DNA of 64,000 nucleotides. It comes from Patescibacteria group bacterium (GTDB lineage: Bacteria > Patescibacteriota > Patescibacteriia > Patescibacteriales > JAQTRU01). Below are positions 8,091-61,724 of the stretch, piece after piece (positions within the stretch are counted from its first letter, which is position 1; every line of letters starts with the position of its first letter). A program made the translations under genes and the position numbers. The notes beneath the pieces are model-generated. The model searched no databases. It saw nothing but the letters and a program-made list of their open reading frames with translations, and was not told the origin of the DNA. The stretch covers positions 6,648 through 70,647 of the forward strand of contig JAQTRU010000001.1 of NCBI GenBank assembly GCA_028711655.1, in the 5' to 3' direction.

Positions 8091-8091
8091 A

Positions 8092-8634
8092 TCAAATATG
8101 ATGAGCAACTTTACACTTTTCCACTAACTTAATAATAACATCCCTTACTTGATCCGGATTCGGAACCTCATGGAAAAAAAATCTTTCTTTAGCCCCGGCT
8201 GTTTGCACATAAACATTGCCGTATTTTAAAATAGTCGGGAAAAATCCCTTGGTTTCGCTGGTAACGTCCTGAACCCGGTCTAGTCTCTGTTCAGAAATTG
8301 TCCGGGCGAAAAACCCCTGTTGTTCTATATTAATAATTCTCTCGCTGGTTATTATCCAAATATCCAGATAATAATCAATAAAAGAAAAAAAGAAAAACAC
8401 CCAAAGAAATAGATAATAAAAGCTTACTATTAAAAGAAAAATGGGATGGGAAATCTGCCCATAAAGAATGTCCGGATAAATAGAAGTAACTACCAAATAA
8501 AAAAGTACCAAGGGCAGAACTAAGAGCAAAATAAAAAATAAAATTTTTTTTATAAGAATAAAAACATCCCGCCTTAGCACTTTTATAATTTTTTCATCGG
8601 GAAGTTTTCCCGGCAAACGGTAAAGTAAAAGCAT
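8092..8634 (-). CDS. Membrane protein with bacterial PH (bPH_2/YdbS-like) domain
   Basis: Two N-terminal TM helices, then a PH-like domain (ERIINIEQQGFFARTISEQRLDRVQDV). Confidence 0.55.
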   Translation of the reverse strand: MLLLYRLPGKLPDEKIIKVLRRDVFILIKKILFFILLLVLPLVLFYLVVTSIYPDILYGQISHPIFLLIVSFYYLFLWVFFFFSFIDYYLDIWIITSERIINIEQQGFFARTISEQRLDRVQDVTSETKGFFPTILKYGNVYVQTAGAKERFFFHEVPNPDQVRDVIIKLVEKCKVAHHI

Positions 8635-17691: not shown

Positions 17692-19065
17692 TTAGAAATC
17701 TTCTAAACCATCTCTCACCACCATACCAACAACAAACCAAGAAAACAAGACTCCAAAATGCAAACTCCAATACCAATGGTCAACCATCATTATTATAACT
17801 AAGCTAGCGAGAATAGACAAACCAAAATATTTTTTATTTTTTATTAAATTCCATCCCAAAAATCCTAAGAGTCCCAAAAATCCCAATAATCCTACCACCC
17901 CCACTTCCGCCCAAACCAATAAAAATACATTATGGACCGGCTGATAATTCCAGCTCTCCTGACCCGGTTTCATTTCCTTTAAAGCCAAGGTGTAATTTCC
18001 CATCCCGGCGCCAAATAACCAATTATTTTTTATTAACTCTTTAGCATCAACTAAAGACTCCTTTCTTTCCGTATTAGATTTAACTTCCAGTCTCGTATCT
18101 TTAGATAACCGCGTTAAAACTAAATTATTGTAAAAATTAAATAAAATAAAAACTAAAATCCCGGCCGCCAAAATTATTTTCAACAGTTCCCTCTGCTTTA
18201 AATAATCTTTCTTTATTAAAAATATAACCAGCATCAATAAAATTCCGACTATAACTCCGGCCCAAGCTCCGCGGGAAAAAGTGAAAAACAGCGCTAATAA
18301 AAATAATAAAATAATAAAATAATAAAATAACTTAAACCTTGTTTGAAAATTTAGAAATTTAAAATTGTTTGAAAATTGAAAATTGCCAGCCAGCGGCTGG
18401 TCCGCCTCTGGCGGAAAAATTGAAAATTTATTAACTAAAAAACAAATTACTATCAATACGCCCGCAACTAAAATCCCTCCCAAAACATTCGGATGATCCA
18501 ATCCCCCATAAGCCCGAAGCCACCTTTCGCCAATCCCATCAGCGCCAATTGTTTCCACAACCGAAACCCCGAGTTCAGCCGGATTATGCATCGCCATTCC
18601 CAACCACTTAGAGGCAAAACTTGATTGGGATAAAAATTGGTAAATCCCCAAACCGGCTTGAAAAAAAATTCCCGCCAACAAGCTCCACAACAATTTCATT
18701 CTGTTATAATTCGCGCTCGTCACGAGCCAAAACAATCCCACCCCCAATAAAAACCAACCGTATTTATACAAGGCCAGCCATTTGTCAGAAGCAGAAAATA
18801 TAGAAATAAAAATAAATAAATCCAAAACCGCTATCACCCACCAAATTTTTGAAAATTTAGAAATTGAAAATTGTTTGAAAATTGAAAATTGAAAATTGAA
18901 AATTACGAATAATAATAGGAGCGCCAGCAAAATTATATCTACCCCATACAAACTATACGTCGCATATTCCGTCTCTCCGGCCCTGATAATCCACCTCGTC
19001 TGCCAAGGCAGTAAGAAAATTAATAAATACAAACCATATTTAATTATTTTTTCCAGTATTGTCAT
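17692..19065 (-). CDS. O-antigen ligase/polymerase (Wzy_C-like) polytopic membrane protein
   Basis: More than 10 TM segments and a large periplasmic loop with WLRAYGGLDHPNVLGGILVAG. Carries two in-frame word-repeat insertions. Confidence 0.55.
   Translation of the reverse strand: MTILEKIIKYGLYLLIFLLPWQTRWIIRAGETEYATYSLYGVDIILLALLLLFVIFNFQFSIFKQFSISKFSKIWWVIAVLDLFIFISIFSASDKWLALYKYGWFLLGVGLFWLVTSANYNRMKLLWSLLAGIFFQAGLGIYQFLSQSSFASKWLGMAMHNPAELGVSVVETIGADGIGERWLRAYGGLDHPNVLGGILVAGVLIVICFLVNKFSIFPPEADQPLAGNFQFSNNFKFLNFQTRFKLFYYFIILLFLLALFFTFSRGAWAGVIVGILLMLVIFLIKKDYLKQRELLKIILAAGILVFILFNFYNNLVLTRLSKDTRLEVKSNTERKESLVDAKELIKNNWLFGAGMGNYTLALKEMKPGQESWNYQPVHNVFLLVWAEVGVVGLLGFLGLLGFLGWNLIKNKKYFGLSILASLVIIMMVDHWYWSLHFGVLFSWFVVGMVVRDGLEDF
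18290..18420. repeat. Intergenic-type cassette inside the CDS: aataaaat array, gaaaatt array and GATCCGCCTCTGGCGG hairpin
   Basis: aataataaaataataaaataataaaataa ... gtttgaaaatttagaaatttaaaattgtttgaaaattgaaaatt gccagccagcggctggtccgcctctggcgg. Confidence 0.7.
18838..18905. repeat. gaaaatt tandem array inside the CDS
   Basis: ttgaaaatttagaaattgaaaattgtttgaaaattgaaaattgaaaattgaaaattacg. Confidence 0.7.
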
Positions 19066-26989: not shown

Positions 26990-28603
<1,614 letters not shown>

Positions 28604-28718
28604 TCTAGGGAGATATTCGGTGAAAAAAACGAATGTGTCGACCTACTTAAATTTTTATAAAATCTAGGTGGGAAATTGGCGCCTGCTAGCTTTGAAATTT
28701 TGATCATCAAATAAAAAA

Positions 28719-28746
28719 ATACGCGAGTTGATCGCGTATTTTTTGT
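28719..28746 (+). terminator. Terminator downstream of 16S
   Basis: atacgcgagttgatcgcgtattttttg. Confidence 0.65.
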
Positions 28747-28808
28747 TGTAAAAATTTTAAAATAAATTCCCAAAAATCCCAAGAATCATTATGATCCCAG
28801 GGATCCCG

Positions 28809-29804
28809 CTAATTAATCCCCATTCTCTCTTTTACTCTTCTTAAAGTTTCATCCGCAATCGGCTTAACTTTCTTTGCCCCGTCTTCCATGATTTTTTTCG
28901 CTTCTTTATCACTAATTATTTTATACCTTTCCTGGAAATCTGCCAAGAACTTCTTTACCACTTCGGCCAAATCTTTTTTAAAGTCGCCGTATCCCTTGCC
29001 CCGGTATTTAGCTTCCAGTTTTTTTATTGGCTCATCAGAGAGTAAAGAATAAATAGTCAACAGATTAGAAATTGCCGGCTTGCTTTTTGGGTCATATTTA
29101 ATTTCCGAACCGGAATCAGTTACGGCCTTCATAATTTTTTTAGCCGCCGCTTCCGGATTATCCGTTAAGCCAATAAAATTATATTCGCTTTCTGCGCTCT
29201 TGCTCATTTTCTTGCTCGGGTCGTCCAGGCCCATAATCCGCGCTCCTTCTTTTCTAATAACCACTTCCGGAATTTTAAACGTTTCACCGAATTGCGAATT
29301 AAACCTACGCCCTAAAGTCCGACAAAGTTCAACATGCTGGGCCTGGTCTTCTCCAACCGGCACGGCATCGGTATTATAAAGTAAAATATCCGAAGCCATT
29401 AAAACCGGGTAATCAAAAAGGCCGATCCCAACATTTTCCTGTCCTTCTCCGGCCTTATCTTTAAACTGGGTCATTTTATTTAAATCGGAAATCCGGGCTA
29501 CGCAATTTAAGATCCAAGTTAATTCCGTGTGCGCGCTAATATCAGACTGCTGGAAAATAATTGATTTTTTCGGGTCAATGCCGGACGCTAAATAAATTTT
29601 AGCCACTTCTATAATTTTTTTCTTTAGCGCTTCTGGGTCCTGCTTAACCGTAATGGCGTGATAATCAACCACGCAAAAAATGCATTGATTTTTCTCCTGC
29701 ATTACCACCCACTGGGCAATCGCGCCCAGATAATTGCCAAGATGCAGATTGCCGCTGGGTTGGACCCCGGAAAAGACTATAGGTTTATTAAGCATAATTA
29801 TCAA
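28809..29804 (-). CDS. trpS: Tryptophanyl-tRNA synthetase
   Basis: GNLHLGNYLGA (HIGH region) and KMSKS. Confidence 0.9.
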   Translation of the reverse strand: MIIMLNKPIVFSGVQPSGNLHLGNYLGAIAQWVVMQEKNQCIFCVVDYHAITVKQDPEALKKKIIEVAKIYLASGIDPKKSIIFQQSDISAHTELTWILNCVARISDLNKMTQFKDKAGEGQENVGIGLFDYPVLMASDILLYNTDAVPVGEDQAQHVELCRTLGRRFNSQFGETFKIPEVVIRKEGARIMGLDDPSKKMSKSAESEYNFIGLTDNPEAAAKKIMKAVTDSGSEIKYDPKSKPAISNLLTIYSLLSDEPIKKLEAKYRGKGYGDFKKDLAEVVKKFLADFQERYKIISDKEAKKIMEDGAKKVKPIADETLRRVKERMGIN

Positions 29805-29807
29805 ATT

Positions 29808-29852
29808 ATATAGTATTCGTATATTCGTAAATAATTCGTAATTCGTAGGAAT
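29808..29852. repeat. attcgta element copy upstream of trpS, ~36-nt near-identical to 37806-37843
   Basis: tattcgtatattcgtaaataattcgtaattcgtagg. Confidence 0.75.
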
Positions 29853-29894
29853 ATACTATTATTGTAATTTAATTATTGGTTTTAAGCAAGAAAA

Positions 29895-29930
29895 AGGTGG
29901 AGACAAGACGGCATCTCGTCTCCACCTAAA
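29895..29930 (-). terminator. Terminator of the small zinc-ribbon gene pair
   Basis: GGTGGAGACaagacggcatctcGTCTCCACC followed by T5 on the minus strand. Confidence 0.6.
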
Positions 29931-29934
29931 ACCA

Positions 29935-30072
29935 TTACTGCCTGCCGTTCCGTTTTTGGAACTGGCTCTTTCTAGCGCTTTTGTCGCATTTCGGACAACG
30001 CTTTACGGTTTTGCCGCCGGGCAAATAGAACGTTTGAATTCTTTCACCATGAACACTGCATTTCTTAGCCAT
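29935..30072 (-). CDS. Small zinc-ribbon protein (45 aa), not in the ORF track
   Basis: MAKKCSVHGERIQTFYLPGGKTVKRCPKCDKSARKSQFQKRNGRQ with SD GGAGAAGG. Coordinates +/-1. Confidence 0.5.
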   Translation of the reverse strand: MAKKCSVHGERIQTFYLPGGKTVKRCPKCDKSARKSQFQKRNGRQ

Positions 30073-30087
30073 AAATCCTTCTCCTAA

Positions 30088-30291
30088 TTACCCATTACAA
30101 AAACCACCTGATGGTGAAGAACCAGACTCCCCGCTTGTACCACCTACAGGAGTGGTAAATCCGAAACCAACGGAATTACGCGGTTTATCTCTTCCTGTAC
30201 TTGTCTCTTTCTTTTGCCCGCATACCAAACAAACGCCGTCAATGACTCTACCGCCGCAACCAGGTTTAGAACAAATTAATTCTTCAGCCAT
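30088..30291 (-). CDS. Small zinc-ribbon protein with Gly/Ser-rich tail (start at MAEEL)
   Basis: MAEELICSKPGCGGRVIDGVCLVCGQKK... with SD GGAGG. Confidence 0.5.
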   Translation of the reverse strand: MAEELICSKPGCGGRVIDGVCLVCGQKKETSTGRDKPRNSVGFGFTTPVGGTSGESGSSPSGGFCNG

Positions 30292-30369
30292 GATAGGCCT
30301 CCATGTTAAGAATGAACAATTAAATATACAATGAATGAACAATTCCTTTCCGCATTAGTCCGCATCAGT

Positions 30370-30690
30370 CTGTATTAGTCCGTGAAAAGAAAAAAGCTTC
30401 CCATCTCTTAAGCATAACTAAATCATGCTCAAGGGACGAAAAGCTTTTGCTTTACGCGGTACCACCCCTTTTCCCGCCAAACTTTTGCGAACAAAACTTA
30501 GGCGGGCACTTTTACTGACTCTGACCCCTCTCGACAAGCTCAGGGCGACATCAGTTAGCCCATGATTACGGAGGCAACCGGGTCTTCACTCTCGCAAAAA
30601 CCACCCTTCCGCCAATTGACGGATAATTCAGGCCCAACCCCCTGCAAAAAAGCAGAGGACCTGAATAGGTTTTATTGTTTTTAAACTACT
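30370..30690 (-). ncRNA. Candidate structured RNA or long structured 5' leader upstream of the zinc-ribbon genes; identity unresolved
   Basis: ~300-nt GC-rich island with no ORF and multiple stems (CCTCTGC-T6-GCAGGGG; GGCGGGAAAAGGGGTGGTACCGCG...). A P4-like GAAGACCCGGTTGCC / GGCAACCGGGTCTTC segment is ambiguous for RNase P. Confidence 0.3.
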
Positions 30691-30743
30691 AAATACAGAA
30701 TAACATAATAAAAAATTCTATCAAATAACTGGGTTTATTTATC

Positions 30744-31331
30744 CTATTTTGCCTCCTCTAATTGATACCACTTAACATGATAATGAATTTTCTCTTCCTG
30801 GCCGTCCGGAATTTTATTTATATTAGGAATTCTAGAATCCGGACTATTTTCTCGATACACTACCTTAAGACTATTACCGATAGTTCCTTCAACTACCAAC
30901 AACATAGATTTCTCTATCCATCTACTAAATTTTTTTTCGTCTTCTTCTAAATCCTGTCTTGCTTTCTTCAGTCCATCTTCACCTAATCCCCCTCCATATT
31001 TTTTCTCAACATCAATTAAAGTTGGCCTTTGCTTTTTTTCTCTATCTTCTCGCGGAAACACTACTAATTTGTCAAGTTCTCCCATGTCTTTAAAAAAACC
31101 AAAAAACCGAACTTCTGTCTCGGGGTCTATTTTTTCAGACGCTGAAGGAATTACCTTTAAACCTCCTTCGGGATCAATCTTAGCCCTATCTACTTTACCG
31201 TCAGATATAATAAACGCGCCCTCCCTCCCGGGTATTTCAAATAAAGCCTCGGAATAATTAGGAATATCCTTTATTTTATATTTTTTGCCAACTTCCAATG
31301 GCGCGGGCATTTGGTTTGGTTGTTCTTTCAT
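30744..31331 (-). CDS. Hypothetical cytoplasmic protein, Lys/Glu-rich
   Basis: 195-aa ORF with no recognisable motif. Confidence 0.4.
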   Translation of the reverse strand: MKEQPNQMPAPLEVGKKYKIKDIPNYSEALFEIPGREGAFIISDGKVDRAKIDPEGGLKVIPSASEKIDPETEVRFFGFFKDMGELDKLVVFPREDREKKQRPTLIDVEKKYGGGLGEDGLKKARQDLEEDEKKFSRWIEKSMLLVVEGTIGNSLKVVYRENSPDSRIPNINKIPDGQEEKIHYHVKWYQLEEAK

Positions 31332-31515
31332 AATTTTTAACTTTCAAGTACACAATAGCATAATAAAAAAAATTTTGTCAATCACGGCTCGCTCACAATC
31401 CCCTTTAGCAGAGCCGTAGTCCCCCAACCCCGCCGCTGGCGGGGTTAACGGGAGACCATGATTGAACCAATCCTTTTAGAGAAGGCCCTGCCAGAGCGAA
31501 AAGAATAAAAATTTA

Positions 31516-32583
31516 TCACCCGCGCACACAACGAACATAGAGGTTGTAGATTTTGCCGGTGTAGTCCACGAGGCCGTAGCCGAAACTCACGCCCCAGGCG
31601 CTGGTGGTATTGTGAACAACGGTAGTAGAAGACCAATAATAAGTGTTGCTGCCGGGGTTGGTATTAGGGAAATAAGTGGTATTGATGGCTGGCAGAGAAT
31701 TCTGATAATTCACGATGCTCATTAGCTCTTTTACATTTGGCAATCTCCAATTATTATAACCACCAAAAATCAAATTTTGGCATTGGCTTAGAGCATTTTC
31801 CCAGTTAACATTATTGACGTATCCGGCGCAGTTGGTTGTTGAAGTATCCGGCTCCGTGCATTTCTTCCACATCAAACCCGTGCAGTTATCAGTTATAGTA
31901 CCGTTGCCATTGTCTGTGAAAGAAGGATTGCAGGTGGAAGGACTGTTGGCAGAGGTATAATCATTATCTTCGCCATAAGTTGCGGTATAGCTTGAAGTCT
32001 GACCGGTATCAGGAAGAGTTTTAATCCCTGTATAAATCCCTGCCAGGCCAAATATGGTAACTCCGCTTTTAATATTGCCGGCGGCTAAGTCAGTATCTAA
32101 GGCGCTCTTGCTAGTTTGGTTAATAAAGCATTTTCCGCCATTGTTATCAGTACAATCGGTCAGGGTATTACTAGCCAAATCAACTAGATTATTCCAGTTA
32201 GCTTCGGTTAAGGTATCACTAGAAGCTGTAGCTCCGGTAGCCTCGGTATCGCAGTTGCTGCCGCATTTATTGTGAATTTCATTAACAAAAGTATTCCAAT
32301 TACTTTGGCTAAGCTGGCCTGAATCATTAGTTTTAGCGTCATTCCAGGCTGCGTAGACATAAGTAGCGCCAATGGCTAGGAATATTCCGAAAATTAGATA
32401 AATCAGCCGGGAAGAAATAAATCCCGCACCTTTCAGCAGAGCATCAAACCTCGCCGAAAGAATTTTGCCTAAATCCTTCATCCCCGCAACAAAGCTACGA
32501 AATATTAAGGAAAGGTGCGGGATAAATTTTAATGTTTTTTTAAAAATGTTTTTCATATTTTTATTGAGATCGTAGTACCCCAA
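31516..32583 (-). CDS. Secreted/anchored Cys-rich protein with C-terminal DUF1566 (Lcl/C-type-lectin-like) domain
   Basis: N-terminal TM anchor, then WRLPNVKELMSI...YWSSTT...AWGVSFGYG...VRCVRG. The last ~45 aa are N/T/Y/S-rich. Confidence 0.6.
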   Translation of the reverse strand: MGYYDLNKNMKNIFKKTLKFIPHLSLIFRSFVAGMKDLGKILSARFDALLKGAGFISSRLIYLIFGIFLAIGATYVYAAWNDAKTNDSGQLSQSNWNTFVNEIHNKCGSNCDTEATGATASSDTLTEANWNNLVDLASNTLTDCTDNNGGKCFINQTSKSALDTDLAAGNIKSGVTIFGLAGIYTGIKTLPDTGQTSSYTATYGEDNDYTSANSPSTCNPSFTDNGNGTITDNCTGLMWKKCTEPDTSTTNCAGYVNNVNWENALSQCQNLIFGGYNNWRLPNVKELMSIVNYQNSLPAINTTYFPNTNPGSNTYYWSSTTVVHNTTSAWGVSFGYGLVDYTGKIYNLYVRCVRG

Positions 32584-32609
32584 TGGGAGACTGCGACTGA
32601 GTTAAATTT

Positions 32610-33458
32610 TTAATAAATATAACACACGCATGTTGCCCATGATTCATAATTATTTCTGTAACAACCAACACGATTATCTCCGCCACCAGTATATACTGTG
32701 AAATCGTTTCCACCAGTATTACATGTGTTGCTACAAACAGTCCCAACAGTGCATGAATAATCTGAAGTACAATCACTGGGATAGCATTTAACTCCTGTAG
32801 ATGCTAAAGTACCAGCAACCCCAAAAATAGTTACTCCACTTTTTATATTTCCAACAGCCAAATCACTATCCATAGCGGAAAAAGTGGAAGTGTTCATATA
32901 GCAATAACCATTATTGCTAGCGGCCGAACAGGCATTGGCATTAACGTATTTAGCCGTATCATCAACATAACAATTAGTTTTGGTGGTCGTAGTTGAATCA
33001 GCGCATTCCGAGCCAAAAGCATAATAGCTGTTGTCAGTCGGAACAAAACATTGGTTTTCTTTAGCTTCATTACATAAATCAGTCGTCAGATAGCGGGCAG
33101 TAGTATCAACATAGCAGTTTGTTTGGGTGGTGGTAGTTGATTCTCCGCATTCCGTAGAATACCACTCTCCGGCCGTAGTCATCCGATTGGTAATATATTC
33201 CAGCCGTTCTACGATAGAGCCATCTTTATTGGTTGCCACCAAGGACGAGTCAAAATCATTATTCGCGTTGTTGGCGCCCAAAATATTCTGGGTAAAATCC
33301 TGGTCCGAATCCGTTGGCCCGGCGCTTGGTTCAACAAAAGCGGCGTAAACATAAACGGTAACAACCGCGGTTAAGGTTAAAATAACCGTAGTAATTATGC
33401 GCCAGCCAATTCTTCCTAGATAGTCATTCAGTTTGGTTTTTAAGATTTGGTTATCCAT
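32610..33458 (-). CDS. Paralogous secreted Cys-rich protein (shares the TM/SAGPTDSDQDF N-module and the DLAxGNIKSGVTIFG motif)
   Basis: MDSDLAVGNIKSGVTIFGVAG vs LDTDLAAGNIKSGVTIFGLAG in the neighbour; more than 25 Cys. Confidence 0.55.
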   Translation of the reverse strand: MDNQILKTKLNDYLGRIGWRIITTVILTLTAVVTVYVYAAFVEPSAGPTDSDQDFTQNILGANNANNDFDSSLVATNKDGSIVERLEYITNRMTTAGEWYSTECGESTTTTQTNCYVDTTARYLTTDLCNEAKENQCFVPTDNSYYAFGSECADSTTTTKTNCYVDDTAKYVNANACSAASNNGYCYMNTSTFSAMDSDLAVGNIKSGVTIFGVAGTLASTGVKCYPSDCTSDYSCTVGTVCSNTCNTGGNDFTVYTGGGDNRVGCYRNNYESWATCVCYIY

Positions 33459-33464
33459 CCAAGT

Positions 33465-33600
33465 TTTAAATTATCAATTATCAATTTTCTAATTTTCAAT
33501 CAATTACCAATTAACAAATTTTCAATTGATAATTTAATTATTGAAAATTCATTAATAATTGAGACTTGAAAATTGAAAATTTTATCTCGTCCTTATCCAT
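33465..33600. repeat. Palindromic array of the tcaatt / gaaaatt words between the paralogs
   Basis: ttatcaattatcaattttctaattttcaatcaattaccaatt ... ttgaaaattcattaataattgagacttgaaaattgaaaatttta. Confidence 0.7.
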
Positions 33601-33617
33601 TTTCGCTTTTTGCTTCT

Positions 33618-33908
33618 TCAACGGCTGTCCAAATAATCAATAACATATTCTAACCTCTCAATAATGCTACCGTCATTATTGACCACCACCAAAGACGAGT
33701 CAAAATCATTATTCGCGTTGTTGGCGCCCAAGATATTTTGGGTAAAATCCTGGTCAGAATCAGCCGGCCCGGCCGAGGGTTCGATAAAAGCGACGTAAAC
33801 ATAAACGGTAACAACCGCGGTTAAGGTTAGAATAATAACCACAATGGCCTTTTTGCCTAATTCTTTTAGATTTAAGAAATTTATTATTTTTTTAACAAAA
33901 TTTTTCAT
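33618..33908 (-). CDS. Truncated duplicate (N-terminal 96 aa) of the 32610-33458 paralog
   Basis: ~190-bp near-identical DNA (33655-33840 vs 33225-33400). Confidence 0.45.
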   Translation of the reverse strand: MKNFVKKIINFLNLKELGKKAIVVIILTLTAVVTVYVYVAFIEPSAGPADSDQDFTQNILGANNANNDFDSSLVVVNNDGSIIERLEYVIDYLDSR

Positions 33909-34018
33909 ATTTAGATTGCCTATAGCAAAAAATAATCAGAAAAACTACTTTGGTTATCTGAACTTATTTTATCATTATTTTAAAATAATCTCAATATTAA
34001 AAACGCGCTCCGCAAACA

Positions 34019-34047
34019 TTGACAATTAGATTAATCTCCCCTATAAT
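34019..34047 (+). promoter_or_regulatory. clpP promoter (sigma-70 consensus)
   Basis: TTGACA-17 nt-TATAAT. Confidence 0.7.
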
Positions 34048-34098
34048 CTAAACATAAAAAATAAATAATTTTTTATTTTTGATTTCTAATTTTTAATT

Positions 34099-34686
34099 TT
34101 GAAAGATATGCCTTTAATTCCAACAGTTATAGAAAAAGACGGACATGTGGAACGGGCTTATGATATCTATTCCCGGCTTTTAAAAGACCGGATTATATTT
34201 TTAGGCGAGCCTATCACCGACCATGTCGCCAATATCATTATCGCCCAATTTCTGTTTTTGGACGCCGAGAATAAGGACCGGGACATAAAATTTTATATCA
34301 ACTCTCCGGGCGGATCAGTCACGGCCGGTATGGCGATCTATGACACCATGCAATATGTCAAATCCGATGTCTCCACAATTTGTGTCGGCATGGCCGCTTC
34401 TATGGGCGCCACCTTGCTCGCTGCCGGAGCCAAAGGAAAAAGGTTCGCTTTGCCCAATTCGGAAATTATGATCCACCAGATTATGGGCGGAGCCGAAGGC
34501 CAAGCTGTTGACATAAAAATCAGGGCCGAACATATCCTGAAGATAAAAGACAAAATGAATAAAATCCTGGCTTTCCATACCGGGCAAAAAATCTCCGCAA
34601 TTGAAAAAGACACTGACCGCGACCGCTTTATGGATGTGGAAGAAGCGAAAAAGTACGGCATCATTGATAAAATAATTACGAGGTAA
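34099..34686 (+). CDS. clpP: ATP-dependent Clp protease proteolytic subunit
   Basis: [20 protein letters not shown] (Ser) ... MIHQ (His). Confidence 0.9.
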
Positions 34687-34703
34687 TTTTCATTTTCTTG
34701 TTG

Positions 34704-34742
34704 GGAGCTCAACTCCGGGGCCTCGGAGTTGAGCTCTTTTTA
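34704..34742 (+). terminator. clpP terminator
   Basis: ggagctcaactccggggcctcggagttgagctcttttt. Confidence 0.7.
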
Positions 34743-34837
34743 GTTTATTGCCAGATGCCGTTTTCTTGTTTCACCGCTTCAAGCATGATATAATATGATT
34801 ATCGGCCAATAATGGCTGAAAAAACAAGGAGGTTAAT

Positions 34838-34930
34838 GTGAGACCCAAAATCGGCGTAGTCTTTCTTCCTGAAGCGCAAGGCAAAGCCAACGAGAGTCTG
34901 TCGCAGAATTTCCCGAATCCGTTCAACTGA
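34838..34930 (+). CDS. Candidate 30-codon small ORF with strong SD, own -10 element and terminator
   Basis: -10 TATAAT at ~34781; SD AAGGAGG; GTG start; VRPKIGVVFLPEAQGKANESLSQNFPNPFN; terminator 34947-34987 (gggtagacttgctaaacgcgagtctaccc+T7). Confidence 0.3.
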   Translation: MRPKIGVVFLPEAQGKANESLSQNFPNPFN

Positions 34931-35005
34931 TGGCTGTTCCGGTGCAACAAGGGGTAGACTTGCTAAACGCGAGTCTACCCTCTTTTTTTATTTTATTGAA
35001 TAAGT

Positions 35006-35040
35006 TTAGGGACTTAGTCGCCACAGAGGCGACTAAGTCC
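35006..35040. repeat. REP-like palindrome R2, second copy at 55389-55423
   Basis: AGGGACTTAGTCGCCacagaGGCGACTAAGTCCCT. Confidence 0.8.
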
Positions 35041-35365
35041 CTATATTTCAGAATGTGATGATTCTTTTTCCCCATTCAATCTTGATTTTCCAAGCTCTTT
35101 ACAAACCTTAAATCTTATGCTAAGATAATTTTACAAACTTAAATTAAATTAATAACGAATAGTGTTGTTAGGAAAAGGAATAATTTTTTAAAGATTTTTC
35201 CAATATCATCGGACAAACCCAATAAATTTGTGAAAATAACTAATTACTCTAGAATATTCTCTGGAACAAAAATCAAAAAATCGTTTGTCGGCCTTAATAA
35301 TTTAGGGCTTATTGTATTGCGAAAAAACAATTAAATTCAACCTCCTGACAACAGAAATAAATTCT

Positions 35366-36880
35366 ATGGAATATGCGATCTACCTTATTCTGGCTGTGGG
35401 CGGTTTTTTTATTGGCTACTGGTTAAGAAAAAGAAAAGCTTTAAGCGAAATTAACAGCGCCGAGGCTCGCGCCGAAAAAATTCTAAACGACACCAAGGTT
35501 AAACAAAAAGAGTTGCTGCTCGTTGCCCAGGATAAAGCTTTGAAAATCATTGAGGAAGCAAAAAAAGAGGAGGGACAAAGGCGAAAAGAAATAAATAACC
35601 TGCAAACCAGACTGGAAAAAAGGGAAACCGCTTTTTCCCAAAAATTATTGGAATTGCAGGAAAAGCAACAGCAGCTTTTTGACAAAGTCAACAGAGTGGA
35701 GGAAGTAAAGGAAAAAATAAAACAAATCAAAGAGGAGCAGATGGTAAAACTGGAAAAAATCGCCAAGATGACAAAAGACGAGGCCAAAGAAGTTTTGTTA
35801 AAAAATGTCGAAGAAAAAGTAAAAGAGGATCTGCTTGTCCGCATTAATAAGTTGGAAAAAGAAGCTACGGAGACTATAGATGAAAAAGCCAAAGACCTGA
35901 TGACCGGGGCTATGCAACGCCTGGTTTCTTCCTACACTCCGGAAATAACAACGACCACGGTTGATTTGCCAAACGATGAAATGAAGGGCCGGATTATCGG
36001 CCGGGAAGGCCGCAACATTAAAGCGATTGAACAAATAACCGGCGTGGAAATTATCGTGGATGACACGCCGAACGCCATTACCATCTCCGGCTTCTCACCC
36101 ATAAGGCGACACATTGCCAAAAGGGCTTTGGATTATTTAATTAAAGACGGACGGATCCATCCGACCAAAATTGAAGAAGCGATTGAAGAAGCGAAAAAAG
36201 AACTGGCTTTGGATATTAAAAAAGCCGGGGAAGAAGCCATGTATGAAATCGGTGTGGCCGGCCTTGACCCGAAATTAGTCCAGATTATCGGCCGCTTGAA
36301 ATACCGCTCCAGCTACGGGCAAAACGCCCTTGGCCATTCCATAGAAGTGGCCCATCTTTCCGCTCTTTTAGCCGAGGAATTAAAAGCCGATGTGACCTTA
36401 GCTAAAAAAGCCGGTTTGCTTCATGATATTGGAAAAGCCGTTGACCATGAAGTGCAAGGGACTCATCCGGAAATCGGCCGCGATATCGCCAAAAAATTCA
36501 ATTTGCCCCAAGAAGTTATTGATCCGATTGAAACTCATCACGACGACCATCCGCGCGGCCTGACTGCCGTAATCGTTAAAGTGGCAGACGCGATTTCCGC
36601 GGCCCGTCCAGGAGCCCGTTATGACACTTATGAACGTTATATCCAGCGCCTGGAAGAACTGGAAAAAATCGCCACTTCTTTCCCGGGAGTGGAAAAATCT
36701 TACGCGATTCAGGCCGGACGCGAAGTAAGGGTTTTTGTCATGCCAGAAGAAATTGACGATTTGAAATCTCATGATTTGGCCCGCGACATAGCGAAAAAAA
36801 TAGAAGAAGAGTTGAAATATCCGGGAGAAATAAAAGTTAATGTTATCAGGGAAATGCGGGTAACGGAATATGCGCGCTAA
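35366..36880 (+). CDS. rny: Ribonuclease Y (TM anchor, KH, HD)
   Basis: MEYAIYLILAVGGFFIGYWL, KH GRIIGREGRNI, HD LLHDIGKA. The ORF track starts 18 codons earlier. Confidence 0.9.
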   Translation: MEYAIYLILAVGGFFIGYWLRKRKALSEINSAEARAEKILNDTKVKQKELLLVAQDKALKIIEEAKKEEGQRRKEINNLQTRLEKRETAFSQKLLELQEKQQQLFDKVNRVEEVKEKIKQIKEEQMVKLEKIAKMTKDEAKEVLLKNVEEKVKEDLLVRINKLEKEATETIDEKAKDLMTGAMQRLVSSYTPEITTTTVDLPNDEMKGRIIGREGRNIKAIEQITGVEIIVDDTPNAITISGFSPIRRHIAKRALDYLIKDGRIHPTKIEEAIEEAKKELALDIKKAGEEAMYEIGVAGLDPKLVQIIGRLKYRSSYGQNALGHSIEVAHLSALLAEELKADVTLAKKAGLLHDIGKAVDHEVQGTHPEIGRDIAKKFNLPQEVIDPIETHHDDHPRGLTAVIVKVADAISAARPGARYDTYERYIQRLEELEKIATSFPGVEKSYAIQAGREVRVFVMPEEIDDLKSHDLARDIAKKIEEELKYPGEIKVNVIREMRVTEYAR

Positions 36881-36884
36881 CGCG

Positions 36885-36962
36885 CTAGTAGAAAGTTATA
36901 AAGTTGAAAGTTATAAAGTCTTACTTTCAACTTTATAAACTTTATAACTTTATGAACTTATT
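36885..36962. repeat. aagttataaagtt palindromic element between rny and ymdB
   Basis: gaaagttataaagttgaaagttataaagtcttactttcaactttataaactttataactttatg overlapping the ymdB start. Confidence 0.75.
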
Positions 36963-37743
36963 ATTTCTCGGCGACATTAACGGCAAAATCGGCCGGCAAG
37001 CCGTGGCTAAAATTTTACCCAAACTAAAAAAGTCTAAAAAAATAGACCTCGTTTTTGCCAATGCGGAAAATATCGCCCACGGCACCGGCGTAACCGAAGA
37101 TACCTTGAAAGAATTAAAAGAGGCCGGCGTGGATTATTTTACCGCCGGCGACCACGCTTTTGATAAAATAAAACAGATTGATTGCTATGAAAAATTTCCG
37201 ATTATCCGGCCGGCCAATTTTCCGAACGGAGCGCCGGGGCAGGGTTATGCGGTTTTGGAAAAAGGAAAATATAAAATATTGCTAATTAATCTTATTGGCC
37301 GGGTATTTATGGCCCAAGATTACGACTGCCCTTTTAGGGAAGTGGATAAAATTCTGGCTAAGTTTGCAAAAAAAAGCGTATCTGCTATAATTATTGATAT
37401 ACATGCCGAAGCGACTTCGGAAAAAATTGCCTTAAAACATTATTTGAACGGACGAGCCAGCGCCATTGTCGGAACTCATACGCATGTTATGACTGCGGAC
37501 GCGGAAGTTTCCAAGGAAGGAACAGCTTATATAACGGACATCGGCATGGTTGGTTTTGCTGACGGCTGCATCGGGGTCGATAAAGAAGGTATTATAAAAA
37601 CTTTCTTAACCCAGATGAAACAACCGCACTTCATACCGGAAAACGGACGGACAATCTTTAATGCCGTTTTAGCCGAAATTAATCCTAAAAATGGAAAAAC
37701 CAAAAGCATAAAACCGATAATTAAAACTACTAATATAGAATAA
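36952..37743 (+). CDS. ymdB: YmdB-like 2',3'-cyclic-nucleotide phosphodiesterase (calcineurin-like metallophosphoesterase)
   Basis: MNLLFLGDINGKIGR; conserved rny-ymdB synteny. Confidence 0.75.
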   Translation: MNLLFLGDINGKIGRQAVAKILPKLKKSKKIDLVFANAENIAHGTGVTEDTLKELKEAGVDYFTAGDHAFDKIKQIDCYEKFPIIRPANFPNGAPGQGYAVLEKGKYKILLINLIGRVFMAQDYDCPFREVDKILAKFAKKSVSAIIIDIHAEATSEKIALKHYLNGRASAIVGTHTHVMTADAEVSKEGTAYITDIGMVGFADGCIGVDKEGIIKTFLTQMKQPHFIPENGRTIFNAVLAEINPKNGKTKSIKPIIKTTNIE

Positions 37744-37845
37744 CCCTACGAATTACGAATATATACGAATGTACGAATTCCCCAATAAACGCCTTAATTT
37801 AATATTCGTATATTCGTAACGAATTCGTAATTCGTAGAATAAAAA
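37744..37845. repeat. attcgta palindromic element upstream of hup
   Basis: cctacgaattacgaatatatacgaatgtacgaattcc ... tattcgtatattcgtaacgaattcgtaattcgtag. Confidence 0.75.
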
Positions 37846-37846
37846 T

Positions 37847-38131
37847 ATGAATAAGGCAGGATTAATTGAAAAAATAGCCGAAGCCGCGGCCGTAACGAAA
37901 AAACAGGCTGAGGACATGATTGAAACTTTGGTAAAAACCATTGTCTCCGAATTAAAATCCGGGGGCGAGGTGACCATTGCCGGTTTTGGCACGTTTCTGG
38001 CCAGAACCCGCCACGCCCGGGGCGGTGTTAATCCGCAGAAACCGACGGAAAGAATTAAAATCCCTGAAGTAAAAGTGGCAAAATTCAAAACCGGAAAAAA
38101 TTTAAAGGACGCTTTAAAAGGCAAAATATAA
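37847..38131 (+). CDS. hup: HU-family DNA-binding protein
   Basis: MNKAGLIEKIAE ... GFGTFLARTRHARGGVNPQ. Confidence 0.9.
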   Translation: MNKAGLIEKIAEAAAVTKKQAEDMIETLVKTIVSELKSGGEVTIAGFGTFLARTRHARGGVNPQKPTERIKIPEVKVAKFKTGKNLKDALKGKI

Positions 38132-38154
38132 TTTTTTACAGGTTAAAATAAAAA

Positions 38155-38188
38155 AACAACCCGTTTGTTTTAAGGGGTTGTTTTTTAT
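38155..38188 (+). terminator. hup terminator
   Basis: aacaacccgtttgttttaaggggttgtttttt. Confidence 0.7.
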
Positions 38189-38245
38189 TGAAAAAAATAG
38201 GGTTATGCCGCTCTAGACATAACCCTCGAAGATAAATCAAAACTA

Positions 38246-39190
38246 TTAAAGATACAGCTGACGAAAATCTCTTATGATTTGTCTGGCGGTTTCCGAATTC
38301 TTTGGATCAAAAGGAATTTCCAGACAAATTATTTCCATTGTCCGGAGAGCTTCCTTAACCGCCGGAGAAAAATTGGCAAGGTGATCATGGGTGTCAATCA
38401 ATATTCCCTCGGGGGGTATGCCGGAGAAATGGCAAACCGGACTATGCGGCAAGGCAAGATAATCAGCAACGGCCTGATTAATATCTTTCCATTTCTCGGG
38501 GATTGCCATAAAACCCTTTTTTGCTTGGTTAACCATTACAGCCAAATGGGTAAAGTCAATCAGGCATTTCCAGCCCAACCCCAAAGATCCAAATAAATGT
38601 TCCATATCTTCCGGAGTGCCGCCAAACCCCCAGTAGCTGCTCCGGCTCCATGGGCTTGTGTCCTCATCTGGTGGATAAAAAGATTTACCAACGATCGGAG
38701 GAACGTTTTCCAGTAAAATATTATTCCCGGAAAACGCGGCCAGAGAGGAAACAACCCTTGAAAAAGATATATAATCCGCCTTGCTTTCCCCATAGCCAGG
38801 ATGAACTACTATCCCTCTTGCATTATATCCGAGTTCTTGAGTTTCTTTAGCTATCCTTAGCGACCAGCGCAAGGTCTCAAAATTCCAGTTCTCCCAAGTA
38901 TAAAAAGAAGAATGACGACCAAATACGCCGAGCTCATCAAAATTTTCACCGAAGTCAACGCCAATATTTTCCGCCCCGCAATGGATAACCACTTCTTTGC
39001 CCGGCAACCTTGATAAAATTTTCCTTAACCAAGATTTATCATCCGCCAGGCCGGGCGTAAAACAAGGGTGCGCCACTCGCAACTGGATACCCTGGATAAA
39101 ACCGGCTCTAAAAAGCCCTTGCTGGAGAGTAAAATATTCGTCTCCGGAAACAAGATTTTCCCAAAAAAGACCGCCAAAAATTTGAGGCAT
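38246..39190 (-). CDS. Hypothetical protein (possible TIM-barrel/sugar-phosphate isomerase-like), higher GC than neighbours
   Basis: 314-aa ORF with HCGAEN, VHPGYGE and THDHL motifs. Confidence 0.4.
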   Translation of the reverse strand: MPQIFGGLFWENLVSGDEYFTLQQGLFRAGFIQGIQLRVAHPCFTPGLADDKSWLRKILSRLPGKEVVIHCGAENIGVDFGENFDELGVFGRHSSFYTWENWNFETLRWSLRIAKETQELGYNARGIVVHPGYGESKADYISFSRVVSSLAAFSGNNILLENVPPIVGKSFYPPDEDTSPWSRSSYWGFGGTPEDMEHLFGSLGLGWKCLIDFTHLAVMVNQAKKGFMAIPEKWKDINQAVADYLALPHSPVCHFSGIPPEGILIDTHDHLANFSPAVKEALRTMEIICLEIPFDPKNSETARQIIRDFRQLYL

Positions 39191-39420
39191 GCCAGACCCA
39201 CCTTTCTGATTTTGTCTTTATTTGTTGATATTTTTAAAGGACCATTAAAATTATATCACTCTATCATATTTTCACTATTCAGTCAATCTAAAAATAATTC
39301 CAAAGGATAGGGGGGTTGTTTTTTATTGAAAAATATGCTAATATAATCTTGAACTCCCCTGGGAGTTCTTTAAATTAGCGCTCGTAGCTTCCGCCTTCGT
39401 CCTTCGATAAACTCAGGACT

Positions 39421-39450
39421 GCGGCGGGTAAGCGACTGGATAGAGCGCGT
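39421..39450 (+). other. tRNA-like 5' fragment (acceptor/D-arm-like), pseudo-tRNA
   Basis: gcggcgggtaagcgactggatagagcgcgtg shares ggatagagcgc with the tRNA-Arg D-arm. Confidence 0.3.
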
Positions 39451-39465
39451 GTTTTCCCTGCCTGC

Positions 39466-39487
39466 CGGCAGGCAGGGGACCAATTAT
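39466..39487. repeat. REP-like palindrome R1 copy
   Basis: cCCTGCCTGCCGGCAGGCAGGg. Confidence 0.85.
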
Positions 39488-39554
39488 TTTTTTGCCGTTT
39501 TGCTCCTGTGGTGAAATGGATATCACGCTTGGCGGAGTTTATCCCGCTTAAAGC

Positions 39555-53200: not shown

Positions 53201-53229
53201 TTGTCAACAGGAGAATGGCTAAGTATAAT
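53201..53229 (+). promoter_or_regulatory. recQ promoter
   Basis: TTGTCA-17 nt-TATAAT. Confidence 0.6.
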
Positions 53230-53259
53230 TTGTAAATTTGTAAAAGATTTGTAATTTGT

Positions 53260-55374
53260 ATGAATATAAAAAAACAACAACTTCTGGAACTCCTTGAAAT
53301 CCATTATGGTTTTAAAAATTTCTGGCCGGGCCAGGAAAAAGCCATTGATAATATTTTAGCCGGTTTAAGTTCGGTCGTTATTATGCCGACCGGCGGGGGC
53401 AAATCTTTAATTTACCAACTCCCGGCTCTAATCTTGGACGGAGTCACGATTGTTATTTCTCCTTTAATCGCTTTAATGAAAGACCAGGTGGACAATTTGA
53501 AAAAAGTCGGCATCCCGGCCAATTTTGTCAATTCTTCAATTTCTCCCGATGAGACTTATGAACGGCTGGAAGAGGTGAAAAAAAATCAGTATAAGCTTCT
53601 TTTTATTGCCCCGGAAAGATTTTATAATCAGGAATTCGTAAAAACCCTAACGGACATCAAAGTAAGTTTATTTGCCATAGACGAAGCTCATTGCATCAGC
53701 CAATGGGGACATGATTTCCGTCCCAGTTATTTAAAGTTAAAGAACGCCCTTGACCTAATTGGCAATCCGCCGGTGGTGGCTTTAACCGCGACCGCCACGC
53801 CGGAAGTCCGGGAAGATATTGTAAAGCAGCTTAATTTAAAAAACCCGGAACTGATAATAACCGGCTTTGCCCGGCCAAACCTCCAATTCGGAGTTATTCA
53901 AGCCAGTGACGCGCAAAAACCCAGTCTGGTTTTGGATGCTTTAAAATCTACCGAAGGATCCGGAATTGTTTATGTGGGCACCCGAGCCAAAGCCGATGAC
54001 TTGGCCCGGACTTTGCTGGAAGAAGATATTCCGGCCGTGGTCTATCATGCCGGCATGGATCCTTCTGACAGAACCTGGGTGCAGGAAAATTTTATGGCGG
54101 GAAAAGTAAAGGTAATTGTGGCCACTAACGCTTTTGGCTTGGGAATTGATAAAAAAGATATCCGCTTTGTCATCCATTATGACATGCCCGGAACGATCGA
54201 AGCTTATTATCAGGAAGCGGGCCGGGCGGGGCGGGACGGCAAACCCAGCTTTTGCCTCCTTCTTTACTCTCCCCGCGACCGTTATTTGCGCGAATTCTTT
54301 ATCAAAGGCGATAACCCTCCGCCTAATATCATCTTGGAAATCTACAAAATTTTAACTGACTACGAGTCAGATACGGTTTTAATCACTTATGCCGACTTGG
54401 CCGAAATGCTTTCAGACAACGTCCCGGAAATGGCTATCGGCACCTCTTTAAAAATCCTGGAACGGGAAGGATATATCAGCCGGCCCAACGAAAAAACCGC
54501 TAATGCTTTTTTAAAGCTAAGCAAGGATTTTGCCTCTGTTCTAGACTCCTTTGGCAGCCGGGCTAAAACCAAAATTGATATATTCCACAAGCTCTATGAC
54601 CGCTTCGGGCAAGATTTAGAAGCTGGCTGGAATTTTTCTTTTGAAGAAGCCGCCGGCATGATTAAAGTAAAAAAGGAGTCTTTTGTCCGTTTAGCGCGCC
54701 ATCTGGCGGAAAATAATTTAGCCGAATATCAACCGCCGTTTCGGGGAACAGAAATTAACATTTTAAAAAGGGTTGATCCGGGCGAACTAAAAATTGATTT
54801 CACCGCCTTAAAAGAAAAATTAAAAAGAGCTTATGCCAAGTTGGACAAAATGGAAGACTATATTTATTATTTTGGCTGTCGGCAGGAATATATTTTGAAA
54901 TATTTCGGGGACGCCAATGCCAAAACCTGCGGAAAATGCGATAACTGCTTAACTGCCGGCGGCTACGAAAGGAAGCGCCAACAGCCGCGGGGAAAAAATC
55001 GTGAGGAAAAAATTTCTAAAAATAATTTGGATGACATGGTGGAAAAACCGAGTTCCAAACCGGCCTTGAGCACGAAATTAACCCAGCTGGAAACTTTTGA
55101 CTTATACAATAAAGGCCTGGCGATTGAGGCTATTGCCGAGGAGCGGAAATTAACCGTTGGCACAATTGTCGGGCATCTTATTTTTTTAATGGAAAAGAAA
55201 CTAATTAGATTTGAAGAGATTAATAAATTAGTTGACAATAATAAGCAAAAAAAAATAAAAGCCGCTATAGCCAAAGTCGGCGCGGAAAAATTAAACCCAA
55301 TAAAGGAAATCGTCGGGGAAGAAATCAGCTACGAAGAAATAAAATTAGTTTTAGCAAAAAAGAAAAATTCTTAA
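53260..55374 (+). CDS. recQ: ATP-dependent DNA helicase RecQ
   Basis: [14 protein letters not shown], Zn-binding Cys cluster [12 protein letters not shown]...CGKCDNC, and HRDC-like C-terminus. Confidence 0.9.
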
Positions 55375-55388
55375 TTTTTTAGAAATTT

Positions 55389-55423
55389 AGGGACTTAGTC
55401 GCCACAAAGGCGACTAAGTCCCT
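55389..55423. repeat. REP-like palindrome R2 copy
   Basis: AGGGACTTAGTCGCCacaaaGGCGACTAAGTCCCT. Confidence 0.8.
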
Positions 55424-56810: not shown

Positions 56811-56916
56811 TTACCTGAAAAATGATAGTTTTAAATCAGACAACTTTTATTAATCTCCCGATTTACGCGTTCTTTCGCGCTGGTCCGTATAAGTCCGCGA
56901 AAATTCGCATAAGTCA

Positions 56917-61478: not shown

Positions 61479-61724
61479 ATATTTTATACTAAAAATGAGG
61501 CGGGGTAAATATACCAAACTGTCCCGTCCCTTTTAAAGGCGCGGGGTTTCACTATATCCCCCTTGCTCCTTTATTCTTAAACCAATTTGTATTTTATGTC
61601 AATGTTTTTATTATAGCAAAAATTGTGTTATGATAATAATATCCATAAATAATTAATTATCGCGTTCTTCCGCGTGAGTCCGCGTTAGTCAGTATAAGTC
61701 CGCGTGAGTCCGCAACAAAAAAAT

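Follow-up and report, generated by a model that had tools for sequence, protein, structure and literature searches.

Mosaic, putatively exported proteins with exchangeable tips, one of them probably of retroelement-target type, between clpP and trpS in a Patescibacteria genome

We analyzed 64,000 nucleotides of DNA from a Patescibacteria group bacterium (GenBank assembly GCA_028711655.1, contig JAQTRU010000001.1, positions 6,648 to 70,647 of the forward strand; hereafter the window), in which three minus-strand open reading frames (ORFs), here called A, B and C, lie between the conserved genes clpP and trpS. This interval appears to be a hot spot of mosaic surface proteins diversified by recombination of their C-terminal tips and, in gene A, by a tip of the type that is rewritten by diversity-generating retroelements (DGRs). 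We give this explanation as a whole a probability of roughly 65%. The modules of A, B and C are an export leader with a stalk of one of two kinds, N1 or N2, a Cys-containing repeat that ends in a motif designated J, and an exchangeable C-terminal domain. They are arranged as follows (positions in the window):

31516-32556, minus strand: gene A, 346 aa, with N2 leader, helical N2 stalk with two Cys pairs, J motif and Lcl_C/DUF1566 C-type-lectin-like tip
31519-31638, minus strand: DGR-type variable-region-like segment of A, the last 40 codons (YWSSTT...YVRCVRG), recognized by template alignment, codon bias and 3' flank
32035-32094, minus strand: J motif of A, DLAAGNIKSGVTIFGLAGIY, the boundary of the conserved N-module and the exchangeable tip
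32610-33458, minus strand: gene B, 282 aa, with N1 leader and domain, two ECxxSTTxTxTNCYVDDTAxY repeats, J motif and a small C-terminal beta domain with 8 Cys
32805-32864, minus strand: J motif of B, ..DSDLAVGNIKSGVTIFGVAG
33191-33385: N1-module direct repeat, copy in B, partner of 33641-33835
33618-33908, minus strand: ORF C, 96 aa, with N1 leader and N1 domain only, ending in ...EYVIDYLDSR*
33641-33835: N1-module direct repeat, copy in C, partner of 33191-33385

The initial annotation, made from the sequence alone, had reported the three ORFs at these places, and all were confirmed; gene A had been listed as 31516-32583, and the ATG at 32556 (MKNIFKK...) is its most likely real start. The resulting 346-aa form is 100% identical to a GenBank protein (P0001) from a metagenome-assembled genome (MAG) labeled 'Patescibacteria group bacterium', on a contig of 77,379 bp. 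Its tip matched Pfam PF07603, Lcl_C (DUF1566), over model positions 1-117 of 117 (E=1.5e-37, 128.8 bits against a gathering cut-off of 34.9). In the AlphaFold2 model the tip had a predicted local distance difference test score (pLDDT) above 90, and its best fold matches were the C-terminal domain of Legionella Lcl (8q4e) and the tip of Bdellovibrio Bd2740 (8oks), followed by snake-venom C-type lectins. The full-length Pfam match and these two fold matches bear out the earlier assignment of A to the DUF1566 type with a C-type-lectin fold. The module after the leader is predicted to be helical (H84-109 and H118-131; AlphaFold2). The hydropathy profile showed one hydrophobic segment in the leader, with probable cleavage at TYVYA|AW. 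The initial annotation had also called the cluster Cys-rich, which applies to A (10 Cys) and B (16 Cys) and fails for C, which has none, and had described the tail of A as enriched in Asn, Thr, Tyr and Ser. The latter claim was not supported: these residues account for 0.40 of the last 40 positions versus 0.42 of the rest of the mature protein, so that the amino-acid composition of the tail is not distinctive. The leader of A also carries a 34-aa insertion (PHLSLIFRSFVAGMKDLGKILSARFDALLKGAGF; 32418-32519, residues 13-46), which was missing from all N2-type homologues retrieved; no tandem duplication could be detected in it.

The evidence that sets the tip of A apart lies in its codons. Expected counts were obtained by resampling synonymous codons according to codon usage in the window. 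Of the final 60 codons of A, 31 end in C (NNC; 19.4 expected, P=6e-4) and only 2 in A (NNA; 7.9 expected, P=7e-3). Codon usage was normal in the rest of A and in all of B. We further examined 81 loci, 79 of which came from a scan of GTDB representative genomes for relatives of the A tip. Template repeats (TRs) were present in 6 of the 81, and 92-100% of their mismatches to Lcl_C 3' ends fell at template adenines; 5 of these 6 loci also had a reverse transcriptase (RT) of the IGNLTSQFFAN type, and two further loci had the RT motif only. For the templates of L011, L014, L044, L046 and L088 the alignment with the last 120 nt of A needed no gap, and for L013 a single gap of 3 nt; the alignments spanned 118-133 nt. 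At template AAC/AAT positions the codons of A are GTT, CAC, AAT, AGC, GGC, AGT, GGC, TAC, CTC, GAC, TAC, ACC, GGC, TAC and CTC. C-termini with verified DGR templates had NNA fractions of 0.02-0.08, like A, versus 0.2-0.5 in many Lcl_C C-termini for which no template was detected. In the template-bearing loci, paralogous variable regions differed mainly at codon positions 1 and 2, as in L014, where the last 60 codons showed 9, 7 and 2 differences at positions 1, 2 and 3, respectively. Besides, the ~20 nt of 3' flank of A is common to verified variable regions (CGCGGGTGATAAATTTTT.T.C.TT). A GC-rich element in the AT-rich spacer (31400-31470, minus strand, ~50-115 nt 3' of the stop codon of A) contains a CCCCGCC-AGC-GGCGGGG hairpin about 75 nt downstream of the gene. 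It was not conserved downstream of the verified variable regions compared, and Rfam at gathering thresholds found no RNA family in 28605-39554, so that the hairpin matches no known family.

The closest homologue of the A tip, P0010 (71% identity), is encoded on an 8.2-kb contig (L088) together with bAvd, an RVT_1 RT and an adenine-biased TR. Its variable region lies 6.8 kb from the TR, and 20 of the 26 differing positions are at adenines, the remainder being a 3-nt indel and bases past the stop codon. On the same contig, in addition to the TR (792-943), the right end holds another adenine-rich, TR-like copy (8084-8199) and the left end a further variable-region end (1-113), a layout that points to a multi-target, possibly two-template DGR in a Patescibacteria-like organism. 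DUF1566 is a recognized DGR target class (PMC5758913, PMC4159848), bacteria of the candidate phyla radiation (CPR) are enriched in DGRs, and remote DGR targets exist (PMC8144416). Given the fit of A to the template scaffold, its NNC and NNA bias and the status of P0010 as a verified DGR target, yet no TR, RT or Avd in the window, gene A is, as far as its sequence tells, a remote or orphaned DGR-type target. We regard a DGR-diversified origin of its tip as highly probable; that the tip is still being diversified in this genome is a possibility we hold with considerable doubt.

Several results weigh against this explanation. All negatives for TR, RT and Avd refer to the 64-kb window, which covers at least 30 kb on either side of gene A. 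Within it, no template copy of the 3' end of A was found by blastn (word size 7), nor did an IUPAC pattern that tolerated up to 3 mismatches reveal one. An adenine-tolerant scan, in which each base of the sense strand of 31519-31638 could be itself or A (example core RMMTGGRRMRWRARWTTCRRMWAMRRMMWMRWRRAMWAMAMMRRMAAAAWMWAMAAMMWM), returned only the variable-region-like segment itself. No window ORF of at least 150 aa that was scanned with Pfam matched RVT_1, a scan for the DGR RT motif ([IVL]GxxxSQ...YxDD) found only a YVDD inside gene B, and tblastn with the RTs of L088 and L049 gave a best E value of 0.65 in the window versus ~1e-100 in positive controls. Two bAvd sequences likewise reached only E=2.2. 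The earlier observation that neither a TR nor an RT is visible in the window was thus upheld by these searches. Against every available template, A had ~26% mismatches at non-adenine positions, which indicates that none of these templates is its own. Its amino-acid scaffold is the general consensus of its Lcl_C subfamily, and the P-values for codon bias are moderate once about six tested windows are allowed for. The Lcl_C tip of P0009, from the related contig L003, lacks the variable-region profile (NNC 0.32, NNA 0.24) and has an insertion. An independent contig from Logan (L008, run SRR22315508, the same kind of sample) was 100% identical across the region, including the variable-region-like segment, and this single contig gave no sign of population heterogeneity there. 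Finally, export, surface location and ligand binding are properties that we infer for the family. The initial proposal of a DGR target therefore holds at the level of the target (template scaffold, codon bias and the P0010 homologue) and does not extend to a working DGR, as no TR, RT or Avd lies in the 64 kb.

The second kind of diversity was revealed by comparison of related contigs. The following features delimit the interval or lie within it next to gene A:

28809-29804, minus strand: trpS, conserved right-hand anchor, a PF00579 gene syntenic in L003, L004, L006 and L007
30088-30342, minus strand: zinc-ribbon-like ORF (CxxC...CxxC), 84 aa, adjoining trpS at the conserved island edge
30744-31331, minus strand: 195-aa ORFan 3' of gene A, with no recognized domain
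34099-34686, plus strand: clpP, conserved left-hand anchor, followed by rny and ymdB (CLP_protease, RNase_Y and YmdB syntenic in L003, L004, L006 and L007)

Five minus-strand ORFs thus stand between trpS and clpP, namely C, B, A, the 195-aa ORF and the 84-aa zinc-ribbon-like ORF. The order ymdB-rny-clpP, island, trpS recurs in four related contigs, with islands that differ in content and hold 2 to 9 genes:

L003, GCA_028716725.1: 2 family genes in the island
L004, JGI metagenome: 9 island genes
L006, JGI/NCBI: 6 island genes
L007, ENA: 5 island genes

The flanks of L003 are ~80-85% identical to the window, and its first island gene, P0009, is a chimera with respect to the window, matching in succession 34025-33641 (the 5' end of C), 33385-32833 (the middle of B) and 32079-31853 (the Lcl_C part of A). 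The switch from B to A falls within a 20-nt overlap at the GNIKSGV core of J. This pattern means that L003 and the window genome carry mutual chimeras joined at J, and together with the differing module sets of the four contigs it supports swapping of tips over evolutionary time. The initial annotation had proposed recombinational switching of C-terminal domains; on the evolutionary scale this is borne out by the island differences, the J-junction chimera and the occurrence of the same tips behind both leaders, while programmed cassette switching is not, the repeats being only 68-83% identical and no array of silent cassettes being present. Fusion of domains to a C-lectin variable-region end by recombination has already been proposed (PMC8144416). 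Family genes of these islands appeared disrupted: a 396-aa and a 218-aa ORF of L004 (4490-6306) together correspond to the 606-aa gene of L006, and a 268-aa gene of L003 (11322-12128) has no J motif and no tip, apparently through a frameshift. Such disruptions fit a rapid turnover of the island.

The mosaic nature of the family is also evident from its homologues. Those of A fall into two groups: thousands that match the Lcl_C domain only, and a Patescibacteria set that matches the N-terminal ~140 residues only, with 54-80% identity. The N2 pattern consists of the leader, AAWNDAKTG..NWN..CGSNCD..NWNNLVDL..DCTDNNGGKCF and then J, past which N2-type homologues have at least six unrelated classes of Cys-rich tips. 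In homologues of B the N1 pattern, (T/V)YVYAAF(V/I)EPxxGPxDSDQDFxQNILGANNAxNDFDSS..DGSIIERLEYI, leads either straight into one of several domains (DUF1554, Lcl_C, Fib_succ_major, a Gly-rich domain or COLFI) or into ECxxSTTxTxTNCYVDDTAxY repeats ending in J. Tip classes found behind both N1 and N2 comprise Lcl_C, GWSGNC, a small IKC-type Cys domain, CWY and a degenerate Lcl form. N1 and the ECxxSTT-type repeat also occur internally and in tandem in larger proteins. A profile search for the family returned 1236 representative proteins at E<=1e-3, 346 at 1e-10 and 89 at 1e-30, including large proteins with up to 17 repeats. No Pfam model matched the N1, N2 or repeat modules when A, B, C, the 195-aa ORF and ten homologues were scanned, and literature searches on Patescibacteria plus DUF1566 turned up only a general DGR survey; as far as these scans and searches show, the modules are undescribed. 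In these proteins a single hydrophobic segment is followed by the conserved sequence (T/V)YVYA|A(W/F), which fits a signal-peptidase I site and suggests that the proteins are exported; lepB is present in the window at 6261-6824.

The motif that the initial annotation had noticed in both A and B, DLA(A/V)GNIKSGVTIFG, was verified and has the family consensus DLxxGNIKSGVTIFGxxG. At the DNA level the J motifs of A and B are 68% identical, with a longest exact run of 10 nt or less. Gene B is 100% identical to P0121, a GenBank protein of the Patescibacteria MAG with the 77,379-bp contig, and had no Pfam match. Apart from the leader and tip, its AlphaFold2 model was of low confidence, with pLDDT below 50 for N1 and the repeats, and a fold search with it returned nothing significant. 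The direct repeat shared by B and C is real and 195 nt long. It is 83% identical in DNA (longest exact run 38 nt) and 77% in protein, and the description "almost identical" was therefore too strong. The earlier view of ORF C as a truncated duplicate of B was not upheld, as the first 21 residues of C match the first gene of the L003 island and not B, and the region upstream of C likewise matches that gene. C ends where two homologues (P0155 and P0168) run on into a DUF1554-like domain. Two diverged homologues of 96-97 aa, P0200 and P0252, share its ...Y(L/F)DSR end, and the ratio of nonsynonymous to synonymous substitution rates (dN/dS) was 0.13 between C and the orthologous 5' end in L003, and 0.07-0.08 for B. 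In view of the same-ending homologues and the ratio of 0.13, ORF C has the appearance of an N1-only protein that is being maintained, or else of a truncation that occurred very recently. Read-through of its TGA, or frameshifting, was considered and rejected, as the downstream frames encode nothing related to the DUF1554-like continuation of P0155. The spacer between C and B (33461-33585), which is partly self-complementary, is filled with short repeats of the type TTGAAAATT, which recur 15 kb away at 18326-18398 and 18849-18904.

Taken together, these data are consistent with the following mechanism. The mosaic surface proteins would form a lineage-specific family, exported and rich in disulfides, with a hot spot in the clpP-trpS interval. 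Each would have a Sec-type leader or anchor, an N1 or N2 stalk, optional Cys repeats ending in J and an exchangeable C-terminal domain. The leader would direct Sec export, with cleavage or anchoring at (T/V)YVYA|A, the stalks would be extracellular and stabilized by disulfides, and the C-terminal domain would be a ligand-binding tip that, by analogy with Lcl and the mosaic adhesive trimer (MAT) fibres of Bdellovibrio (PMC10769870), most plausibly attaches to the surface of a host or partner cell. Diversity would arise at two levels. At one, which the comparison of contigs documents, homologous recombination at conserved modules, above all J, moves tips between stalks and reshapes the island. 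At the other, the Lcl_C/C-type-lectin tip of A would carry a DGR-type variable region shaped by adenine-specific retro-mutagenesis. This may be going on today, driven by a template and an RT that lie on a different contig or more than 30 kb off, or it may have ended recently, when recombination brought the tip into the island and left the cassette behind. Within this scheme B would be a sibling with a small 8-Cys beta tip and no DGR signature, and C a short N1-only ORF that is apparently maintained.

A stronger sub-case of the favored explanation is that A is an active DGR target, with 31519-31638 being rewritten by adenine-specific mutagenic retrohoming; the TR, Avd and RT would then lie outside the window, either in the remaining 13 kb of its contig or on a different contig. 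The variable-region scaffold, the codons ending in C or T (NNY) at template AAY positions and the shared 3' flank all agree with it, and the retention of a final C by 14 of ~17 codons at variable positions, despite the high A+T content of the genome, argues that templating was recent. A distance of 6.8 kb separates P0010 from its template, and the documented remote targets (PMC8144416) are compatible with a distant cassette. However, at least 30 kb on either side of A is free of TR, RT and Avd, the TR lies within ~7 kb of the targets in the verified relatives found, and the independent Logan contig showed no heterogeneity, so that current activity seems possible and somewhat doubtful. A broader joint version, in which A is a live remote target, recombination at J moves the mutagenizable tip between stalks and the N1-only 96-aa protein serves as a base or partner subunit, would be rather unlikely in our estimation. 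Under it, an episymbiont with a reduced genome would diversify its surface in two tiers, exchanging tips and mutating them by retroelement, at a single hot spot of the chromosome. The opposite view is that of an ordinary paralogous family with no special diversification, in which the bias at the end of A would reflect a segment acquired from a relative of higher G+C content, and the likeness to templates would be the family consensus. The amino-acid scaffold is indeed the subfamily consensus, modules are frequently exchanged between lineages, and G+C content is 0.53 in the last 135 nt of A versus 0.41 elsewhere in the gene. On the other hand, the bias is codon-position specific, third-position A being almost absent and C-ending codons standing exactly at template AAY positions, and A shares its profile with C-termini that have verified templates and not with many Lcl_C ends without a detected template. 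We consider such a family without special diversification to be unlikely.

Two other explanations take the modular architecture as their starting point. In programmed antigenic variation, the 5' modules of C and B and the J motif would permit frequent gene conversion or deletion and thereby switch the expressed tip. Shared modules in direct orientation, past recombination at J and the variable island content between genomes are what this would predict, but identity between the repeats is no more than 83% for N1 and 68% for J, the longest exact runs being 38 nt and at most 10 nt, respectively, each copy comes with a start codon and leader of its own, no array of silent cassettes lacking promoters is present, and L006 and L007, which come from different samples, have nearly the same island. 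Frequent switching of this kind is therefore very improbable. If the proteins were instead polymorphic toxins or bacteriocins, an N-terminal export module would carry variable Cys-rich C-terminal toxins, and downstream genes, for example the 195-aa ORFan, would provide immunity. A conserved N-terminus, a sharp junction motif, unrelated C-termini, orphan leader-only ORFs and an ORFan that directly follows A and is absent from L003 resemble such loci. Yet the recognizable tips are binding domains (Lcl_C, DUF1554, Fib_succ_major and COLFI) and not enzymes or pore formers, A directly follows B with no candidate immunity gene between them, neither A, B, C and the 195-aa ORF nor the ten homologues matched a toxin or immunity family, and the fold of the tip matches adhesins; a toxin function is accordingly given hardly any credence.

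The explanation that we prefer, tip recombination combined with a DGR-type tip of A, can be compared with several known systems. The reference class for A is that of DGR variable proteins with DUF1566, Fib_succ_major or DUF823 domains (category 'd', CLec2; for example, Legionella LdtA; Wu et al. 2018, PMC5758913; Ye 2014, PMC4159848). Like these proteins, A places its variable region in the final ~40 codons, inside a C-type-lectin-like domain at the C-terminus, has a ...YVRCVRG end and NNY at template AAY, and, as we infer, is exported or surface-exposed, with the class showing varied N-terminal appendages. Unlike them, it has no TR, Avd or RT within 64 kb, and its N2/J module is not among the appended domains described. 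Among DGR loci of Patescibacteria/CPR, we compared L088 (the P0010 contig), L049 (a Saccharibacteria MAG) and L013 (a Nealsonbacteria MAG). A has the variable-region frame of L088 and L013, single 3-nt indels aside, with a conserved 3' flank, and its layout of leader, helical stalk and Lcl_C resembles the targets of L049 and L088. In all three loci, however, bAvd, TR and RT lie 0.5-7 kb from the target, whereas the window has none. The A tip finds its best structural match in Legionella pneumophila Lcl (8q4e), on which the Pfam family Lcl_C, common to both, was founded; A differs from Lcl in having no collagen-like stalk, and sequence identity is only 23%.

The MAT fibres of Bdellovibrio bacteriovorus are trimers of ~600-1100-aa beta-prism or beta-helix proteins, which have a beta-rich N-terminal domain of ~130 aa and in many cases an S74 protease as well (Caulton et al. 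2024, PMC10769870). Similar to MAT fibres such as Bd2740, the proteins described here are paralogues that keep one module behind the signal peptide and vary in their C-terminal tips; in both families a C-type-lectin variant is among the tips, that of the MAT fibres (8oks) being a top structural match to A, and the organism that carries them, like Bdellovibrio, depends on attachment to other cells. In contrast to MAT fibres, the present proteins are 100-600 aa long, their stalks are helical (N2) or poorly modeled (N1, repeat), no sequence relation exists, and the structural models are of monomers only. The ~130-aa beta-rich domain that follows the signal peptide in MAT proteins was not found, the corresponding module being predicted helical in A and unstructured or of low confidence in B. 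Polymorphic toxin loci (CdiA-CT, Rhs) share with the island a conserved N-part, a short junction motif, unrelated C-termini, orphan fragments and junction recombination; the island differs in its binding-domain tips and in having neither toxin domains nor immunity pairs. Compared with pilE/pilS or vls systems, there are no silent promoterless cassettes bounded by near-identical repeats, and all three ORFs have their own start and leader. The locus thus falls outside the MAT proteins, the polymorphic toxins and the cassette systems of pilS type, and by analogy may be viewed as a small-scale counterpart of mosaic adhesin families such as MAT fibres.

The principles involved are already known, and A belongs to an established Pfam family, Lcl_C. 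Little is known of the proteins with which Patescibacteria, as cells that live attached to others, recognize their hosts; the locus offers a concrete candidate family, with ~1,200 representative clusters, a fixed address between clpP and trpS and a repertoire that can be compared between strains. It would also be a worked example of the survey-based idea that DGR variable-region tips spread onto varied scaffolds by intragenic recombination. In addition, the codon signature (NNC excess, avoidance of third-position adenine and template register) may flag DGR-type targets without a retroelement on the contig, which current DGR surveys miss by design.

With regard to the other ORFs of the island, the initial annotation had treated 30744-33908 as one cluster of paralogues, an interval that also takes in the unrelated 195-aa ORFan. 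This Lys/Glu-rich protein had no Pfam match, its sole homologue among 5.8 billion proteins was itself, and it is absent from the orthologous island of L003, where the alignment skips 30744-31331. The zinc-ribbon-like ORF has a 66-aa counterpart in L003 (12784-12984). Apart from these, the window carries five tRNAs, a 16S rRNA gene that is unlinked and otherwise common housekeeping genes. A 663-aa protein with T4SS_pilin and Big_5 domains is encoded at 140-2131 (minus strand); a comparable large T4SS_pilin/Ig-domain protein occurs in locus L001, which also has N2-family genes. The bacterial 16S rRNA gene (26991-28604, plus strand) is complete, with no 23S or 5S match in the window, and spans 1614 nt versus 1533 positions of the model, which implies ~80 nt of extra sequence.

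Several short repeats were also noted. Repeats with a 10-nt period (TAAGTCCGTA / GTCCGCRTNA) are located at 27095-27169, 30345-30396, 56860-56921 and 61665-61716. The copy within the 16S gene, close to the 5' end of that gene, comes after an inverted form (TAATGCGGAC TAATGCGGA), giving a long hairpin that is possibly the 16S insertion; the remaining copies are intergenic, one of them directly upstream of the zinc-ribbon ORF beside the island. Two intergenic, perfect 41-nt palindromes that are 95% identical to each other (AGGGACTTAGTCGCC-ACAGA-GGCGACTAAGTCCCT; 35002-35042 and 55383-55423) look like repetitive extragenic palindromic elements or terminators. AT-rich intergenic repeats of ATTCGTA/ATTTGTA units, some arranged as inverted pairs, were found at 29808-29859, 37797-37848, 53221-53272 and 62056-62152, one of them just upstream of trpS at the island edge.

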